From NCBI GenBank assembly GCA_028522875.1, contig GCA_028522875.1_3659.1: DNA of 64,000 nucleotides; one strand, given 5' to 3'. The translations under genes were made by a program, and so were the position numbers. Of this stretch, positions 51,165 through 64,000 are shown one piece after another (positions within the stretch are counted from its first letter, which is position 1; each line of letters begins with the position of its first letter). The stretch is from a phage. The notes under the pieces were generated by a model. That model was not told where the DNA came from and ran no database searches. It saw nothing but the letters and a program-made list of their open reading frames with translations.

Positions 51165-54100
51165 ATGAGCATGTGGTCTTTCGATTTTGAGTCATCCGGT
51201 TTGCTGGAAGACCCAGATCTTTATTATCACTGCGGCCTGTTTAAAGAGCTGAATAAGAACCGTTTTATGCTGTTCCTTCCTCTAAATGACCGCACACACT
51301 ACTCTGAAGAGGATATAGAGAAGGCTAAGAACTTTATTCTGGCAAAGAAAACTCTTTATAAAGATTTTGAAGTTCGCATAGCAGATTTTTCAGAGTTGGA
51401 AGGTTGGCTTACAGGAAATTCTGACTGGTCACCCACAGCTTTGAACTGCCACAACTGCTACAGCTACGACTTTATGCTGATGGAGAGATTGTCCGGTATT
51501 CATTTTGATATGTTCCGTGACCCTAAGTGTATGGGGACTATCAACGACCACCAGGTTAATCTGTTTGATACGTTGGCGATGAGCCGAATCTTGTGGCCTG
51601 ATCGCCCTTTACCAAAAGGTTGTCCGGACTCTGTATTCAACCCGGTTACTAAGAAAATGCAGCCTGTTGGTCCTCACGGCCTTATGGCATGGGGCTACGC
51701 CCTTGGTAACCAGAAAGTTCAAATTGATGACTGGCGCGATCTTCCGTTGTGGAAGTATGTGGATCGTGTATTCGAGGACGTTATCATCCAGGAGCTGCTC
51801 TGGAAAGAGCTGGTAGCGGAATCAAAAGGTGTATTCTACGGCAAATCTGACATGCAGAACTTTATGTACGATCCAGCCAAAGAGAAGCCGAAAGGGTTCA
51901 AGAAGATCACCTGGAAGAACGCACTACGTCGAGGCATGCTGCAGCACTTCCTGATGGAGCTGCAGGCCCGTCAGGGTGTATACTTCGACATAGATGGAGC
52001 TATTGCTTTACGTGACCGTTGCGATGCGTGGATGAAAGAAATCGCTGATCGTGTTGAACCACAACTACCTTTAAAAGAGCTGTCAATGTCTCAGCGGCCC
52101 AAGTTCCCTGAAAAGCCGTTTAACCAAGACGGGACAATCTCTAATAATGGTTGGAAATGGTTAAAAGATAAGCTTGGCTATCCTGTAGACATGAGCGCTT
52201 TAGATTTCAAAGCCCCGCCTAAGCGAGCATTTACCTCTACAGGAGATGTCAGCAAGATGGGGATAAAATGGTGTGAAGAGATGGGCTGCAAAGACCCCGA
52301 TAAGATGGCTGATTTCTTGAGAGGCTATATTAAGGGCACTTCCACACCTCACCCTTTGCCTAAAGAGCTGATGGATCAGGCAATAAGTGATCTACAGCAG
52401 AAGCGAATGCCGGACTGCAAGATACCTATGAAAATCAGCAATCAGGACGACATTAAGCGGTATCTGATCAGTGCTGGCTGGCTACCGACAATGTGGAGAA
52501 CTAAGGATGTAACTAAAGATAGCAAGAAGAAAGCTCTACCTGATGCGGATGTTGATGCACGAGTATATGCATATATGGACGAGCTTTTAGAGTCAGAGTA
52601 TTGTGACCTGATTATCAACTTCTGGAACAAAACTGATGCCAAGTTCCAGACAACTGTGCACAAGTTCCGAAGCTTTCCTAACTCTGAAAGGATTAAAAAG
52701 GAAGTATTCGGGAAAATACGTAGAAAAGCCAGAGCACTTATTACTTCTCCGCAACTGAAAGATACGTTTGGACACCTGTGTCCGAATCTTGAAAAATTGA
52801 ACGGAGAGATGGCTAAAGATATCGTCTTGTGGTTATCATTGCGAAACCGCAGATCAGTCCTTGATCCAATCAAGGAGGATAAGGTTGATACTGGTCTTCT
52901 TAATCACCCACGTTTGAAGATTGACCATAAGCTTCCTGCTAAAAGCTCTGGATTAACAAACACTTCCAGACAGAAACACAGTATTTGTGCAAACATGCCT
53001 AAACCATCCCCTAAAGTGGTTATGGGTAAAGAGATGCGCAGTCTGTGGGGTGTTCCTCCTGGATACTTTCAGATCGGTATTGACGGGTCCAACTTAGAGC
53101 AGCTTATCGGGGCTTGGGGTGCCTTTGAGTTCGACAACGGCCTGTATTACGATGTTGTAAGTAACGGCGATGCACATTGTTATTCAGGAGATACACAAAT
53201 TCTCACGGAGAAAGGGTGGGTGAGGTTTGAAGATCTTGATCCGGGAACACAAGTGTTCCAGTACGATCACAACACCTCGTCAATGAACCTTGTTACTCCA
53301 TTAAATTACGTTAAGCGTAGTTATTATGGAGATATGTATCATTTCCACAACAGTAGTGTGGATTTTATGGTTACAGATCAACACAGGATGCTGACTGTGG
53401 ATCACAGAAGCAATAAATTGTTTGAAGATTTGGCAAAAGACCTGAAAGCAGGTAAAGGGTCTAATTCAGGAAGAAGGTTTATCCATGCGGCAGAGTTTTA
53501 TGGGAATACAGCCTTATCTCCTGCCCAGGTTAATTTGCTTATTGCTATTCACGATGATGGGCACTTGCATACAAATAAGGACGGCAGCATCGTGTGCAGG
53601 ATTCAGGTCGGAAAGGGAAGAAAAGTTGCAACGCTTTTAGATACTTTTTCTGCTCTAAGCCTTAGTTATGTAGAGCAGAGCGGGAAAACCACAAAAGGAG
53701 GCTTACTGGCGAGAAGGTTCCAATTCCACGTTCCGTCTTGGGTATTTGAGTTTTTGGACAGCAATAAGGATTTCACCTACAACCTGATGAACCTTGATAA
53801 AGAATCTAAAAACCTGTTTATAGCTTCTTTATCTAACTGGGACGGGTGGGTATCTTCAGAAGGTGGAAAGGTTGCTTACTACTCCCAGGCCGAGTGTAGG
53901 AAGAAATCTGTAGAGGTGGTGTCTGCGCTGGCTACTCAGTGTGGTTTACGGAATAATACGGTGGCGATTCACAAAAAAGGTCGTGCCGTGCAGCACAGAA
54001 TCACAATTGGTAGCAAACAGAGAGCAGGGTTGCTGACACTATCTAAAGAGTCTGTCGAGGTGAGCGGTTCTTTGGTTTATTGCGTTACCGTCCCTTCTGG

Positions 54101-54557
54101 AGCAATCATTGTGAGAAGGAATGGTAAAGTGGCAGTGTGCGGTAACTGTAATAACGCCAAAGCTTACTCTTCTGTAGCAGGCAAGGAGATTTCCCGTAAC
54201 GATGGTAAGCCTATCACGTATGGGGTTATGTACGGGGCACAAAAAGATAAAGTTGCAGATATGCTGGACATCTCTCCAGAGTTGGGACAAAGGGTAATCG
54301 ATGCACTCTGGGATGCCAACCCTGGTCTCAAGGGGCGCAAAGAGGATCTGGAGAAATTCTGGGAAGCAACTGGTAAGAAGTTTATCTACTCTTTTGATGG
54401 TCATGCTATCTGGACCAGATCTAAACACTCTTTACTTAATGCATACCAACAGAATGGTGGTGCATCGCTGTGTGACTTAGTTGGGATACTTATGCACCAC
54501 CAAATGGTGAAGCGTGGGTGGTACGATGAAGGTGTTCGTCGTATTATTTATTACCAT
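51165..54557 (+). CDS. DNA polymerase, family A (T7-like), exon 1; contains an in-frame intein
   Basis: 3'-5' exo motif FDFESSG; motif A IGIDGSNLEQLIGAW; motif B KPITYGVMYG; ORF stops right after ...IIYYH-K at motif C position. Confidence 0.8.
53178..54146 (+). mobile_element. intein (Hint domain with degenerate LAGLIDADG-like endonuclease region) in DNA polymerase
   Basis: 323-codon insert between pol motifs A and B: starts CYSGDTQILTEKGWVRFEDL (block A), TxxH block B at VTDQHRMLT, ends ...RRNGKVAVCGN with +1 Cys; flanks align with T7 pol NGDIHTKNQIA. Confidence 0.6.
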
Positions 54558-54833
54558 AAATAACATTGTGGCTTCATAGAGTAATCTATGTCGAATAACC
54601 TCTTTAACTGCGGGAAGCCTAAACCTTATGGCAAGGTAATCCGCAACGAAGCGCTCAAAAGAGCGAACGCTCAGAGGCCATTCCGAAAGGAAGTAGACCA
54701 GCAAGTGCGGTCGAAATGGGAGGATTCCTGTGGTTGCTTATCATAGGAATATGAGATGGTCCGATCCTACGTGAAAACGTATGGCTATGCACGTAATGGT
54801 GCGGGGTAGCTTAACGACCTACCTGAACTATTG
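54558..54833 (+). ncRNA. group I self-splicing intron (no ORF) interrupting DNA polymerase motif C
   Basis: 5' exon ends in U (54557), intron ends in G (54833); P1 exon CCAU with intron GUGG (54567-54570); core elements P CUGCGGGAAG (54607-54616), Q AAUCCGCAAC (54637-54646), R GUAGACCAGC (54692-54701), S GAGAUGGUCCG (54752-54762); splicing restores YYH-DEYQ. Confidence 0.75.
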
Positions 54834-55187
54834 GATGAGTACCAACTTCAGGTCCCTGACACGCCTAAGTATAAGACTGTGTACACCTTCGACACAATTG
54901 AAGAATTGGAAGCATTTAAGGCAGAGCAGGAGGCCAAACTTCATGTGTTTGACGGTCATAAGTACAAAAAGGCACGCAAGGATGAAAACGGAAACGAAGT
55001 GGTTGACAGAGACGGAAACACGGTGTACGATCCTATCCTGAACGATGACGGAAAGCTTGAACTTATCTGGAGCCCTGTGGGTGAAATGGTGGTGCATTGC
55101 TTCTGGCAAGCTTCTAAAATGATGGGCGTTCCATTCCAGATCACAGGTGAATACTTGTGTGGTCGGAACTGGGGTGATTGTCACTAA
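54834..55187 (+). CDS. DNA polymerase, family A, exon 2 (C-terminal part)
   Basis: Begins GAT GAG (DE of motif C HDE) right after intron-terminal G; C-terminus ...GRNWGDCH parallels T7 DNA polymerase ...GPNWAICH. Confidence 0.75.
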   Translation, partial: DEYQLQVPDTPKYKTVYTFDTIEELEAFKAEQEAKLHVFDGHKYKKARKDENGNEVVDRDGNTVYDPILNDDGKLELIWSPVGEMVVHCFWQASKMMGVPFQITGEYLCGRNWGDCH

Positions 55188-55946: not shown

Positions 55947-56318
55947 ATGCTAGTAAAAGGTACCCACACAGTCAAACAACGTATTGAAGTTGAGATTGAT
56001 GATTGTGAGCTGAAGCATATTTTACGGTCATGCTCCAACGTTTTGCTCCTTAGTATTCTTCAGGAGCGAGCGGAGAACGAGTTCTTAAATGCATTGGCAG
56101 GCCGTCCAGGTGACTTTTGTGTGCGTAAGCGTGGTGACAACAAGTCATGGTTGTGGGAAATCGATGCCGACTGGGATTACCACAAAAATGAGGGCATAGA
56201 TGAGCCTATTCGTGAACTGACGGACAAAGAGATTCAGATGTACAATGAAGTTTGTCATTGGGCAACACGCCAACAAATTTACCTAGACCCTGTGTGGCTG
56301 ATTGAAAATAGCCATTGA
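55947..56318 (+). CDS. hypothetical protein
   Basis: ATG 55947 preceded by gaggagg (track start 55920 less likely). Confidence 0.45.
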   Translation: MLVKGTHTVKQRIEVEIDDCELKHILRSCSNVLLLSILQERAENEFLNALAGRPGDFCVRKRGDNKSWLWEIDADWDYHKNEGIDEPIRELTDKEIQMYNEVCHWATRQQIYLDPVWLIENSH

Positions 56319-56394: not shown

Positions 56395-56649
56395 ATGAAA
56401 ATTACTTTGAAGCCGGAATGCGTTGCAAATGACCGAGCTTTTAAAGATTGCACAGTCGGTGCAATCTATGAAGCAGAGTTTTGTGAGAACCCTCTGGTAA
56501 AAGCCCTTCTGGAAGAAGGGGCCCCTTTATCACAAGAAGAGATTGATGAGCTGGAAAACTCAGCACAGTGCCTTACCTTTAAAGATGATGAAGGAGACTC
56601 TGTCTGGTGCACTGTTAATGAAGTAGTTTTTGTAAAACCTGAACATTAA
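56395..56649 (+). CDS. small protein, paralog of 56713-56985
   Basis: 84 aa; RBS aaggag; shared K.KP(E/D)...(N/K)D.AF(K/R)DCT ... (F/I)KDD(E/Q)GD.V.CT pattern. Confidence 0.45.
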   Translation: MKITLKPECVANDRAFKDCTVGAIYEAEFCENPLVKALLEEGAPLSQEEIDELENSAQCLTFKDDEGDSVWCTVNEVVFVKPEH

Positions 56650-56652
56650 TAC

Positions 56653-56681
56653 TTGACAACAGTGATAGGGCCTAATATAAT
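56653..56681 (+). promoter_or_regulatory. consensus sigma70 promoter TTGACA-17-TATAAT, with -10 inside a 9-bp perfect inverted repeat
   Basis: -35 TTGACA 56653-56658, -10 TATAAT 56676-56681; GATAGGGCC (56664-56672) and GGCCCTATC (56682-56690) flank TAATATAAT. Confidence 0.55.
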
Positions 56682-56712
56682 GGCCCTATCAAAACGAAAG
56701 GGGACCACAGCA

Positions 56713-56985
56713 ATGACCAAACAATATCAACGAATTAAAGCCAAGGTTAAGCCAGACTATCTGGAGAAAGACTCTGCTTTTCGGGACTGCACAGCCGACA
56801 AAGTTTACACAGGGGCCGTCCTGTTGAACGATGAACTTGAAGTAGATATTCTGGGTAAAGAGGCCACTATTAAGGACGACCAAGGCGATTATGTTTGCTG
56901 CACCACACGTGAGCTAGAAATCTTAGAATACTTCGGTGAAATCTTCACCTCTCTTGATGATTACTTAGATGATGAGGAAGCGTGA
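56713..56985 (+). CDS. small protein, paralog of 56395-56649
   Basis: ATG 56713 with RBS aaagggga; track start 56653 rejected because it overlaps the consensus promoter. Confidence 0.45.
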   Translation: MTKQYQRIKAKVKPDYLEKDSAFRDCTADKVYTGAVLLNDELEVDILGKEATIKDDQGDYVCCTTRELEILEYFGEIFTSLDDYLDDEEA

Positions 56986-57374
56986 TGAAAAATATTTGGG
57001 ATATTGATATCTTTGAAGCCTCTAAGCTTGATGGTGCTGATGGAGTGATTATGGTATCTGATGGCAAGGCAACACTAACTTCCGGAGATATCATCTATGC
57101 CTTGGACGAGCTGGCGCTTCTGAAATCTACCGGTAACACTCTAGAGGAGCGTCTTCAAGGCTTCGCCTTCAAAGAAGGTACAAATACAGCCATGATGTGC
57201 ACCACACGGACAGTTCAGATGGGTAACGGTGTCTATATGATTATTGCTGTGTGTCCTAAATTCAGCAACGTCAACAAAGATGATGCTGACGCGGTAAACG
57301 ATGTGGTTGTTCTCTTCGTGGGTGACGCTATGGCAGATCTGATGAATGCGGGAGAAGCAGCAAATGAAGACTGA
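56982..57374 (+). CDS. hypothetical protein
   Basis: 130 aa; RBS gaggaag; ATGA overlap. Confidence 0.45.
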   Translation: MMKNIWDIDIFEASKLDGADGVIMVSDGKATLTSGDIIYALDELALLKSTGNTLEERLQGFAFKEGTNTAMMCTTRTVQMGNGVYMIIAVCPKFSNVNKDDADAVNDVVVLFVGDAMADLMNAGEAANED

Positions 57375-57666
57375 AAACATCACCCCAGCAGGGTTCTTAA
57401 AAGTATACCGTGAACTGCTGTATACTACAGAGGACAGTGTTCTAGAGTATCCAGAATATCTCTTGCTGTATAAGTATCTGCAGGAGGCTGGTGAAAATCT
57501 GCCAGTTAGTGCAGAAGGCGGTCCGAACTGGGTATACAGCGCATGGAGAAAGGTTGACATTCTCCCAGACCCAGGCAAAGATATGGTAGTTTGGCAGCTT
57601 ATCAACAACATCGGGATTCCAATCTTTGATGAAGCTGTTAAAATCTATTTTGAACTTGACGATTAA
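57364..57666 (+). CDS. hypothetical protein
   Basis: ATG 57364 preceded by gggag (track start 57346 less likely). Confidence 0.4.
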   Translation: MKTENITPAGFLKVYRELLYTTEDSVLEYPEYLLLYKYLQEAGENLPVSAEGGPNWVYSAWRKVDILPDPGKDMVVWQLINNIGIPIFDEAVKIYFELDD

Positions 57667-57683
57667 TATCAGGAGACCTTAAG

Positions 57684-57929
57684 ATGACTGAAGTAGTTGC
57701 TCGCGCAGGACAGAAAGTACGTTGTGTTGAAGTAGGTTTTGGTGGCAAAGGGTGTCAAAACTTGACTCAAGGTAAGGAATACGCTGTTATCTCTGGTGGT
57801 GGCGACGAAAGTATTGTGTTCGAGGGCCACATCCTGGATGCTGAAAACTTTGAAATCTTTGACGACGATGGGGATCCGATCACCTGCCTGCTGGACGGGA
57901 ATTGGGGAACTTTCGAAGTGATTGGCTAA
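57684..57929 (+). CDS. small protein, distant member of tandem paralog family
   Basis: 81 aa; RBS caggag; GKEYAV ... FDDDGDPITCLL resembles KDD.GD...CT core. Confidence 0.4.
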   Translation: MTEVVARAGQKVRCVEVGFGGKGCQNLTQGKEYAVISGGGDESIVFEGHILDAENFEIFDDDGDPITCLLDGNWGTFEVIG

Positions 57930-57939
57930 CAAATACCTA

Positions 57940-57968
57940 TTGTAATTTACAGAAGGGGATGCTAAAAT
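57940..57968 (+). promoter_or_regulatory. sigma70-like promoter TTGTAA-17-TAAAAT with extended -10 TG
   Basis: -35 TTGTAA 57940-57945; spacer ends ...TGC; -10 TAAAAT 57963-57968; upstream of 58013. Confidence 0.45.
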
Positions 57969-58012
57969 AGTGTCTCCTTCTATGTTGTTCAAATAAAATC
58001 GGAGATTCCATA

Positions 58013-60444: not shown

Positions 60445-60870
60445 ATGATCTATGAAATGCCAAAACTGATTCGTGACGATGCCCAAAACGCCCACACCTT
60501 TATCATGGGCAAGCGCATGGATATTATTTGTCATAAAGATTTCTGGGAAGGGAGTTACTTCACGGAATATTTTGGTAAACTGGATAATGGTCTGCTGATC
60601 CAGTTCTACACCGATGCGGAAAACAATATCTGCTGGGAGTTCGAAACTGAAGATATCCATAAACTTTTCACCTTCCTAGGTATTAAGGTTGAGGCCAAGT
60701 TCGAAGAAGGTGAGTGCGACGATTGTGGATTCTACGAGGTAACAGATTTCTATCTCCCAAGTGGTGAGAACCTTTACTATGAAAGCCACTTCGGCAACTC
60801 AAATATGCCACAAGGTTGGGATGAGTTTTTTGAAATTGTGGAAGAGGAGCTGGCATACCGTGATTATTGA
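60445..60870 (+). CDS. hypothetical protein
   Basis: 141 aa; RBS ggagaac. Confidence 0.45.
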   Translation: MIYEMPKLIRDDAQNAHTFIMGKRMDIICHKDFWEGSYFTEYFGKLDNGLLIQFYTDAENNICWEFETEDIHKLFTFLGIKVEAKFEEGECDDCGFYEVTDFYLPSGENLYYESHFGNSNMPQGWDEFFEIVEEELAYRDY

Positions 60871-63145: not shown

Positions 63146-63174
63146 TATTTTAAGTTATCAGGTTGCCAGAGATC

Positions 63175-63212
63175 AGGAGGATTTCTAAAATGGATTTCCT
63201 CCTTTTGATATT
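63175..63212 (+). terminator. candidate terminator after last gene of rightward block
   Basis: aggagga ... tcctcct inverted repeat (large loop) followed by tttgatatttt. Confidence 0.3.
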
Positions 63213-63950: not shown

Positions 63951-64000
63951 CTGCCGTCCTTTCGATAGGTATATTGTGCCACCTGGCGGGGTCGCTGTCA

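Follow-up and report, generated by a model that had tools for sequence, protein, structure and literature searches.

We analyzed a 64-kb stretch of phage DNA (the window) and found that the element at positions 56653–56690 of its plus strand (site A), which combines a promoter with an inverted repeat, is probably a cassette of the promoter-early stem-loop (PeSL) type, that is, a strong σ70-type early promoter together with a stem-loop that overlaps its -10 hexamer. The window belongs to a Vequintavirus, an rV5-like lytic myovirus of Escherichia coli: its segment 55000–59000 is 98.8% identical to vB_EcoM-Pr121LW, and at least 80% of this segment is covered in 115 phage records. PeSLs were described in the T4-type phages RB49 and phi1, where they lie between the ORFans of plastic regions (Arbiol et al. 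2010, PMC2839356). In that study, strong lacZ expression was obtained from cloned PeSLs, and one PeSL stem-loop cut downstream expression as much as rrnB T1 (PMC2839356). PeSLs were proposed to be "mobile regulatory cassettes" in the shuffling of T4-type ORFans, each with its own promoter and terminator. The literature that we searched describes PeSLs only in T4-type phages; site A is a known kind of element in a phage lineage for which that literature does not describe it.

We assign site A to the PeSLs because every element of their published layout is present and in the same order (Table 1). The stop codon of the upstream open reading frame (ORF) lies in A/T-rich DNA, the promoter hexamers have the spacing of about 17 nt, a stem-loop covers the -10, and a Shine-Dalgarno (SD) sequence and an ATG follow on the 3' side. 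All 12 hexamer bases match the σ70 consensus TTGACA-TATAAT, with a spacer of exactly 17 nt, and the -10 sits in the 9-nt core of a perfect inverted repeat with 9-bp arms (GATAGGGCC/GGCCCTATC, 56664–56690), both as an earlier, sequence-only reading of the window had described them. A tenth T-A pair (56663/56691) extends the stem in the window and is not conserved among relatives. After the right arm come the box ATCAAAACGAAA, the SD sequence GGGGA and the ATG at 56713. The element fits within the 63-bp gap between two plus-strand ORFs (84 and 90 aa, Table 1), and its predicted transcription start, A 56688, was placed by the usual 7-nt distance after the -10.

The similarity to bona fide PeSLs extends beyond the hexamers. 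We read the PeSLs of phi1 from two regions of its genome. The PeSL between phi1 ORF069 and ORF068 has the same TTGACA-17-TATAAT promoter and a stem (TGCGGTTA/TAACCGCA) that brackets the -10; in the 199/198 PeSL, the stem also brackets the -10 and is directly followed by ATCAAAACGAGA; and the 212/210 and 071/070 PeSLs carry a 12-mer identical to the box of site A, 6 nt after the -10 and hence in the same register. A sequence-only model was built from 18 phi1 PeSLs, collected without reference to site A, and was run on the window and on the whole rV5 genome (the E-values are rough). Site A was its top match in the window (18.4 bits, E = 3.9e-4). In rV5, the model detected 4 cassettes at E < 0.05. 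The rV5 orthologue of site A scored 14.6 bits, promoters P220 and P186 scored 20.9 and 12.9 bits, and an element at 116803–116855 scored 22.4 bits. The model and the direct homologues described below place site A in the PeSL family; the shared 12-mer adds similarity beyond the hexamers. Separately, a second copy of the PeSL box occurs on the minus strand of rV5 at about 107478, near ORF165-166, where TATTAT, CAACTA and ATCAAAACGAA stand in the same register and precede an SD sequence and an ATG.

Homologues of the cassette are present in T4-type phages outside the RB49/phi1 group. A short BLAST search with the cassette returned weak matches (E about 2, 57 nt, 76% identity) in intergenic DNA of T4-type myoviruses of 163–170 kb, which, when read directly, are clearly the same element as site A. 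In Mosigvirus mobillu and SHSML-52-1, TTTACA-17-TATAGT is combined with the stem GATAGGGCT/AGTCCTATC, followed by AAAACAAATGGAG and then by an ATG; the post-stem sequence reads AAAACAAATGGAGTCCACAATG in these 2 phages and AAAACGAAAGGGGACCACAGCAATG in the window, and a change from C-G to U-A separates the pairs that close the loop. Variants with GGTAGGACT or GATAGGACT paired to GGTCCTATC were found in ST2 and AlbertHofmann, and further related copies in Kanagawavirus ZX14 and Marfavirus EI. At one stem position, G-C, G·U and A-U pairs are all seen across these cross-family homologues. The cassette thus occurs in 4 gene contexts (Vequintavirus, 2 in Mosigvirus, and Kanagawavirus/Marfavirus) whose flanking ORFs have no detectable homology to each other, i.e., the same cassette stands beside unrelated genes, as expected from modular shuffling. 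By a protein-based locus search and tblastn, the ORF downstream of site A is confined to the genus Vequintavirus (116 records), so that deep covariation could not have come from orthologues.

To sample the family more widely, we searched IMG/VR with a pattern that placed N3 and CCTATCAAAAC after a -10 and put no constraint on the left arm. The search yielded 114 stretches (93 unique), mostly on contigs of 160–175 kb, several of which carry 2 copies of the cassette. Among the 45 distinct promoter-like cassettes, 67% had a folding z-score below -2 and 64% enclosed the -10 in a stable hairpin, against 11% and 21%, respectively, of 38 chance matches to the core. The stems of the family covary (GGGCTAT/ATAGCCC, GGGTTAT/ATAACCC, GGTCTATA/TATAGACC and GATAGGGTA/TACCCTATC). 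The potential to form a hairpin over the -10 is a property of the family, and the pattern of changes indicates that it is selected and kept by pairing rather than by sequence. Such a pattern is predicted by a nucleic-acid structure and not by a protein site. No Rfam family matched the hairpin.

Within the genus, we compared 20 orthologous copies of site A, taken from GenBank phages, IMG/VR and metagenomes; 15 of them are distinct. No copy departs from the -35 sequence, and the -10 reads TATAAT or TACAAT. Of the 2 arms, the right one hardly changes and the left one differs between copies at 4 of its 9 positions; pairing is nevertheless kept in 93% of the stem cells, compared with 26% to 49% in slid registers. 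At one stem pair, 10 distinct rows have G-C and 3 have A-U; at another, A-U (8 rows), G-U (6) and G-C (1) all occur. A compensated GGACC/GGTCC allele is carried by rV5, PDX, phiWec189, HdK5 and MiataMamis and, in a shifted register, by CM1, whereas 2 haplotypes (Murica and 241Ecol014PP) have an A·C mismatch. On double-stranded DNA the commonest haplotypes are asymmetric (GATGGGGCC versus GGCCCTATC). A scan of viral contigs with an invariant 16-mer upstream of the site was discarded as a source of further copies: only 2 of its 82 loci were orthologues and the rest were chance matches.

The inverted repeat on its own is unremarkable against chance. The window has 3 perfect hairpins whose stem is 10 bp or longer and whose loop is 3–15 nt, with 0.7 expected, although this particular palindrome is unique in the window even when up to 3 mismatches are allowed (0.01 expected). 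What exceeds chance is its overlap with the only perfect promoter on the plus strand of the window, its intergenic position and its conservation. Exact consensus promoters with a spacer of 15–19 nt were found 2 times in the 64 kb, against 0.10 expected. Folded as RNA, the hairpin has a free energy of -18.3 kcal/mol (z = -3.9), and none of 200 shuffled sequences folded as well.

The evidence supports site A as a predicted strong σ70-type early promoter. This reading holds because the consensus is perfect, the hexamers are conserved in the 20 copies, an SD sequence precedes the ATG, the GenBank record of Gotham contains a software-predicted promoter at this position (the only record that does), and homologous PeSLs are active; in RB49 and phi1, the promoter activity of this cassette class has been measured (PMC2839356). 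Site A would thereby add a strong early promoter that is absent from the published rV5 promoter table (Table S4, PMC3606486). The sequence-only reading had placed a repressor-controlled strong promoter inside a small-paralog array. Its promoter stands on the consensus, the conservation and the SD sequence, and its repressor is not supported, given the unique half-sites and the variable left arm discussed below. The paralogy is real, since the 2 ORFs flanking site A are paralogous (32% identity, E = 1e-10), and the array is not: no other pair of paralogous ORFs was detectable in the neighborhood.

In the mechanism that we consider most likely, host RNA polymerase with σ70 would start at about A 56688 and transcribe the ORFan run 56713–57929, a tightly packed group that the predicted promoter would drive. 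For rV5, the published analysis puts forward no phage RNA polymerase and raises the possibility that the host polymerase is not even modified (PMC3606486), and the related Certrevirus CB7 encodes no RNA polymerase. Transcripts begun at 56688 would carry at most 3 nt of the right arm and could therefore not form the hairpin. The whole 9-bp GC-rich stem-loop would be present only in RNA that reads through from the promoter at 56315 and from the DNA polymerase operon; a terminator scan found no terminator between these upstream sources and site A. By analogy with RB49 and phi1, the hairpin could act in such RNA as an attenuator, pause or terminator signal and/or protect the 3' end of the upstream message. 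The promoter of site A would then restart transcription for the next group of ORFans, whose expression would be set mainly by their own promoter, and the cassette as a whole would be a portable module common to several phage lineages. The hairpin is not a canonical intrinsic terminator. In Murica and HdK5, the annotated terminators proved to be those of another site, at about 57950, and not of site A.

Several observations weigh against the PeSL assignment or against a role of the hairpin in RNA. No U-tract follows the hairpin, where the sequence runs on as AAAACGAAAGG, and the terminator scan does not list it. The PeSL stem-loop whose terminator function was tested (RB49 211/210, with phi1 212/210 as its counterpart) is laid out differently: in phi1 212/210, the stem is in the spacer and the U/A-rich -10 forms its tail. 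Comparison of sense and antisense folding gave a mixed outcome. The sense strand had the better fold energy in most T4-type cassettes (35 of 43) and vequintavirus haplotypes (11 of 13) but the worse one in 12 of 17 phi1 PeSLs, and loop and stacking context as well as relatedness confound the comparison. The covariation score within the genus (0.183 versus 0.138 for shuffled alignments, reached by 4 of 500 shuffles) gives modest support to a paired structure; it rests on few independent events, and related sequences can reach such scores without any structure. A strand test on single-sided changes in the genus was not significant (about 3–5 wobble-forming versus 2 mismatch-forming events). The core CTATCAAAAC is single-copy both in the window and in rV5, and vequintaviruses contain no dense repeat family of this kind. 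Insertions, deletions or replacements of genes at the cassette were not seen between close relatives, as all 116 vequintavirus records align over at least 99% of the query; a role in shuffling consequently draws its backing from the cross-family comparison only. Site A does not reside in a T4-type (Straboviridae) genome either, which reflects where PeSLs were described and not how they work. No transcriptome or 5'-end map for any vequintavirus was found in the literature searched. Finally, the 32 promoters of rV5 Table S4 that we located do not, as a class, fold into hairpins more readily than random segments do (p = 0.20 by a Mann-Whitney test of z-scores; z < -2 in 16% versus 14%), and a genome-wide hairpin rule for rV5 promoters was rejected on this comparison.

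Individual rV5 promoters do have stems. P051, P093 and P224 have them around the -10, P150 and P164 over the -35, and P185, P194, P174, P168, P192 and P107 have GC hairpins just after the -10. P185 and P194 (about 113100–115700, minus strand) share the same GC-rich hairpin, GGCGGGAA-loop-TTCCCGCC, just past the -10, and the similar hairpins of P192, P174 and P168 look like a repeated post-promoter stem-loop, perhaps another subclass of PeSL.

Four other explanations have to be set against a PeSL whose hairpin acts in read-through RNA. The first, which we regard as possible but doubtful, is that the cassette is an autonomous mobile module that crosses between T4-type Straboviridae and Vequintavirinae without its flanking genes, and that the hairpin is the determinant of this mobility, as a target of recombination or of a nuclease, and not primarily a transcription signal. 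If this were true, the single copy found here, compared with the multiple copies of T4-type genomes, would be the sign of a recent acquisition from a T4-type phage that co-infected the same E. coli host; as it stands, the difference in copy number hints at capture from a T4-type phage.

A related explanation, which is unlikely, is that the inverted repeat acts as DNA, in a cruciform or a hairpin of the non-template strand that tunes promoter opening or serves recombination. The GC clamps on both sides of the A/T-rich -10 may confer supercoiling sensitivity, or the repeat may be the substrate of the recombination that moves such cassettes between genomes. Three observations agree with a DNA structure: a mini-circle crossover in RB49 was located inside the loop of one PeSL stem-loop (PMC2839356), phages of different families have unrelated genes on either side of the cassette, and vequintavirus homology breaks exactly at the stem of another hairpin of the window (63163–63205). 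Covariation does not separate RNA from DNA because G·T wobbles are tolerated in single-stranded DNA too. A 9-bp stem with a 9-nt loop is short, however, for cruciform extrusion, rearrangement at site A is absent from the 116 vequintavirus records, and we found no direct evidence of a structure-specific enzyme acting at site A.

We consider it more improbable still that the repeat has no separate function and simply results from having a GC-rich spacer and discriminator on the 2 sides of a consensus -10, or persists as a neutral relic of the origin of the cassette. The chance rate of such hairpins, about 0.7 per window, would allow it, as would the 2 mismatched haplotypes and the lack of hairpin enrichment among rV5 promoters as a class. 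What it does not explain is that pairing is kept far above the level of the slid registers, that compensatory changes occur both within the genus and across families, and that a hairpin over the -10 is about 3 times as frequent in the cassette family as among chance matches.

The sequence-only reading had taken the palindrome for an operator and had suggested a genome-wide search for further copies that would define a regulon. Under this explanation, a dimeric phage or host repressor would bind the 9-9-9 palindrome on double-stranded DNA, occlude the -10 and shut the promoter off. The dyad is indeed perfect and centered on the -10 of the core promoter, both arms changed together in the 6 copies with the GGACC/GGTCC allele, which could reflect co-evolution of a site and its protein, and the neighboring ORFans of unknown function could hide a new DNA-binding fold. 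The suggested search, carried out on the 137,947-bp rV5 genome, found the half-sites GATAGGACC/GGTCCTATC at this locus only, and therefore no regulon; matches with one mismatch were at chance level, and the half-sites are also unique in the window. An operator, which would then serve a repressor dedicated to this single site, is thus very improbable, because its half-sites are neither recurrent nor conserved among relatives (the commonest haplotypes being asymmetric and the variable left arm keeping its pairing rather than its sequence), the homologous T4-type cassettes shift both stem sequence and register while pairing persists, no DNA-binding domain was detected in 10 nearby ORFs, and the arm centers, 18 bp apart, are not on the same helix face. 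Taking the palindrome for an operator was tempting, and the PeSL assignment corrects this reading.

Table 1. Features at and around site A (window coordinates)
Feature	Position	Strand	Remarks
Next promoter upstream, TTGACA-17-TAAGAT; equivalent of rV5 P220	56315–56343	+	Score of the rV5 copy under the phi1 PeSL model: 20.9 bits
Upstream ORFan, 84 aa, PHROG 12544; equivalent of rV5 ORF220	56395–56649	+	TAA stop at 56647–56649, in the A/T-rich stretch before the -35
A/T-rich stretch ACATTAATAC upstream of the -35, holds the stop codon; counterpart of the A/T-rich part of PeSLs	56640–56652	+	PeSL anatomy in PMC2839356
-35 hexamer TTGACA	56653–56658	+	Invariant in 20 copies
Left stem arm GATAGGGCC, within the promoter spacer; variable arm	56664–56672	+	
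Loop TAATATAAT, 9 nt, contains the -10	56673–56681	+	
-10 hexamer TATAAT (rV5 allele TACAAT), 17-nt spacer, in the hairpin loop	56676–56681	+	
Right stem arm GGCCCTATC, directly after the -10; about -6 to +3 of the predicted start	56682–56690	+	
Conserved PeSL box ATCAAAACGAAA, 6 nt past the -10; predicted transcription start at A 56688	56688–56699	+	
SD sequence GGGGA, 8 nt before the ATG	56700–56704	+	
Downstream ORFan, 90 aa, PHROG 11936; equivalent of rV5 ORF219	56713–56985	+	First gene of the packed ORFan run

Site A sits among ORFans, like the PeSLs of plastic early regions. Nine of the 10 ORFs between 54.8 and 58.4 kb fall in PHROGs of unknown function, and the tenth (54831–55187) matches the C-terminal part of a "DNA polymerase" PHROG. 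Pfam returned matches to domains of unknown function (DUF) only, one of them below its cut-off, and neither the Pfam nor the PHROG scans recognized a DNA-binding or regulator domain in these 10 ORFs. The start of the downstream gene is annotated in 2 ways. The GenBank records of HdK5, NHEP1, 241Ecol014PP, rV5 and S127 BCL3 place it upstream of ATG 56713, and the start annotated in HdK5 and NHEP1 maps to an ATG at 56680–56682, which overlaps the -10 and loop and has no SD sequence. Murica, Gotham and CM1 start the gene at ATG 56713, with the GGGGA 8 nt upstream. The longer version has probably been extended too far, and the layout of the cassette supports ATG 56713 as the start of the gene and not the ATG inside the -10.

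Other genes of this region are also shared with T4-type phages. An ORFan 3.7 kb downstream (60445–60870, plus strand; equivalent of rV5 ORF210) has homologues only in Vequintavirus and in T4-type phages, among them the RB49/phi1 group (Krischvirus phi1, about 38% identity), and the rV5 record notes similarities to RB49 for ORFs 167, 205, 206, 209 and 231. The early region thus shares genes as well as cassettes with T4-type phages. Upstream, the family A DNA polymerase ORF (51165–54563, plus strand) encodes 1132 aa, compared with about 925 aa in Murica, S127 BCL3 and MiataMamis, and has a weak match to the Hint domain at aa 672–706 (below the Pfam cut-off) with the motif CYSGDTQILT; match and motif suggest an intein; in phiWec189, the DNA polymerase gene is split differently. 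We also noted that 16 GenBank records labeled "Campylobacter phage" (MG0656xx) are 96% to 99% identical to E. coli vequintaviruses over the region of site A. Fifteen of them name Campylobacter jejuni as the host, and these host labels look doubtful.

The window contains further hairpins associated with promoter-like hexamers. At 57940–57981 (plus strand), the layout is that of site A: the hexamers are TTGTAA-17-TAAAAT, and a 14-bp hairpin (-18 kcal/mol, z = -4.2) carries the -10-like one at its apex. Annotations of this element differ, with a terminator in Murica and HdK5 and a promoter in Gotham; a G·U pair of its stem is A-U in EI-SP-GF and S127 BCL3, and the phi1 PeSL model does not detect it. 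At the third site, 63163–63205 (plus strand), TTGCCA-17-TAAAAT has its -10 in the loop of AGGAGGA/TCCTCCT, followed by a T-tract. A compensatory change is present in slur16 (AGGAGAA/TTCTCCT), and the upstream sequence is unrelated in PDX, S127 BCL3 and one IMG/VR contig, with homology ending at the stem. The segment 63150–64000 is ORF-poor and contains dispersed direct repeats (GTACTCGATCTGTTTTTCGTTT twice, at about 63459 and 63522, and AAAATGGAT 4 times); it may serve as an origin or as a further regulatory region. On the minus strand, the phi1 PeSL model also has a match at 63956–64000, where the element is cut by the end of the window, and this match is probably the counterpart of rV5 116803–116855, the best match of the whole search.

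Site A, a recognizable homologue of the T4-type cassettes in an rV5-like phage, with the same stem, box and register and unrelated flanking genes, provides direct sequence evidence that such cassettes are shared across phage families that infect the same hosts. A regulatory cassette common to unrelated ORFans in different phage families is the part most worth following up. Phage therapy and biocontrol make use of vequintaviruses, which gives a correct map of their early transcription units some applied value as well.

Site A can be compared with several known systems. With promoter-overlapping operators such as lac O1, lambda OR and the LexA boxes, it shares dyad symmetry over a core promoter. 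It differs from them in that its half-sites are neither conserved nor recurrent, no cognate regulator was found, and its arms are unusually long (9 bp), with a center-to-center spacing of 18 bp. The virion RNA polymerase of phage N4 uses promoters in which the key element lies in a DNA hairpin with a stem of 5–7 bp and a 3-nt loop and is recognized by a dedicated phage polymerase. Site A likewise has a key promoter element in a hairpin, but its hexamers are plain σ70 consensus. Like an intrinsic terminator, site A has a GC-rich hairpin (about -18 kcal/mol) 14 nt past a stop codon; its tail, AAAACGAAA, is not a U-tract. The PeSLs of the T4/PST type have the consensus TTTACW-N17-TAYWAT and a stem of the form AGNA-loop-TCNT (Comeau et al. 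2014, PMC4122927). Their -35 differs from the E. coli consensus TTGACA of site A, and the sampled T4-type genomes often have more than one copy per contig. The stem core AGGA...TCCT of the rV5 allele fits AGNA-loop-TCNT, where the window has AGGG...CCCT, and the Mosigvirus, Kanagawavirus and Marfavirus homologues have the same right arm followed by CCTATCAAAAC. Compared with the PeSLs of RB49 and phi1, site A resides in a Vequintavirus and not in a T4-type genome, its stem GATAGGGCC/GGCCCTATC is not of the G(n)-loop-C(n) type, its exact core occurs once per genome and not in dozens of related copies, and it shows no indel polymorphism within the genus. With these same PeSLs, however, it shares the near-perfect TTGACA-N17-TATAAT promoter, the A/T-rich stretch that holds a stop codon, the stem-loop over the -10, the SD sequence and ATG on the 3' side, and the setting among ORFans.

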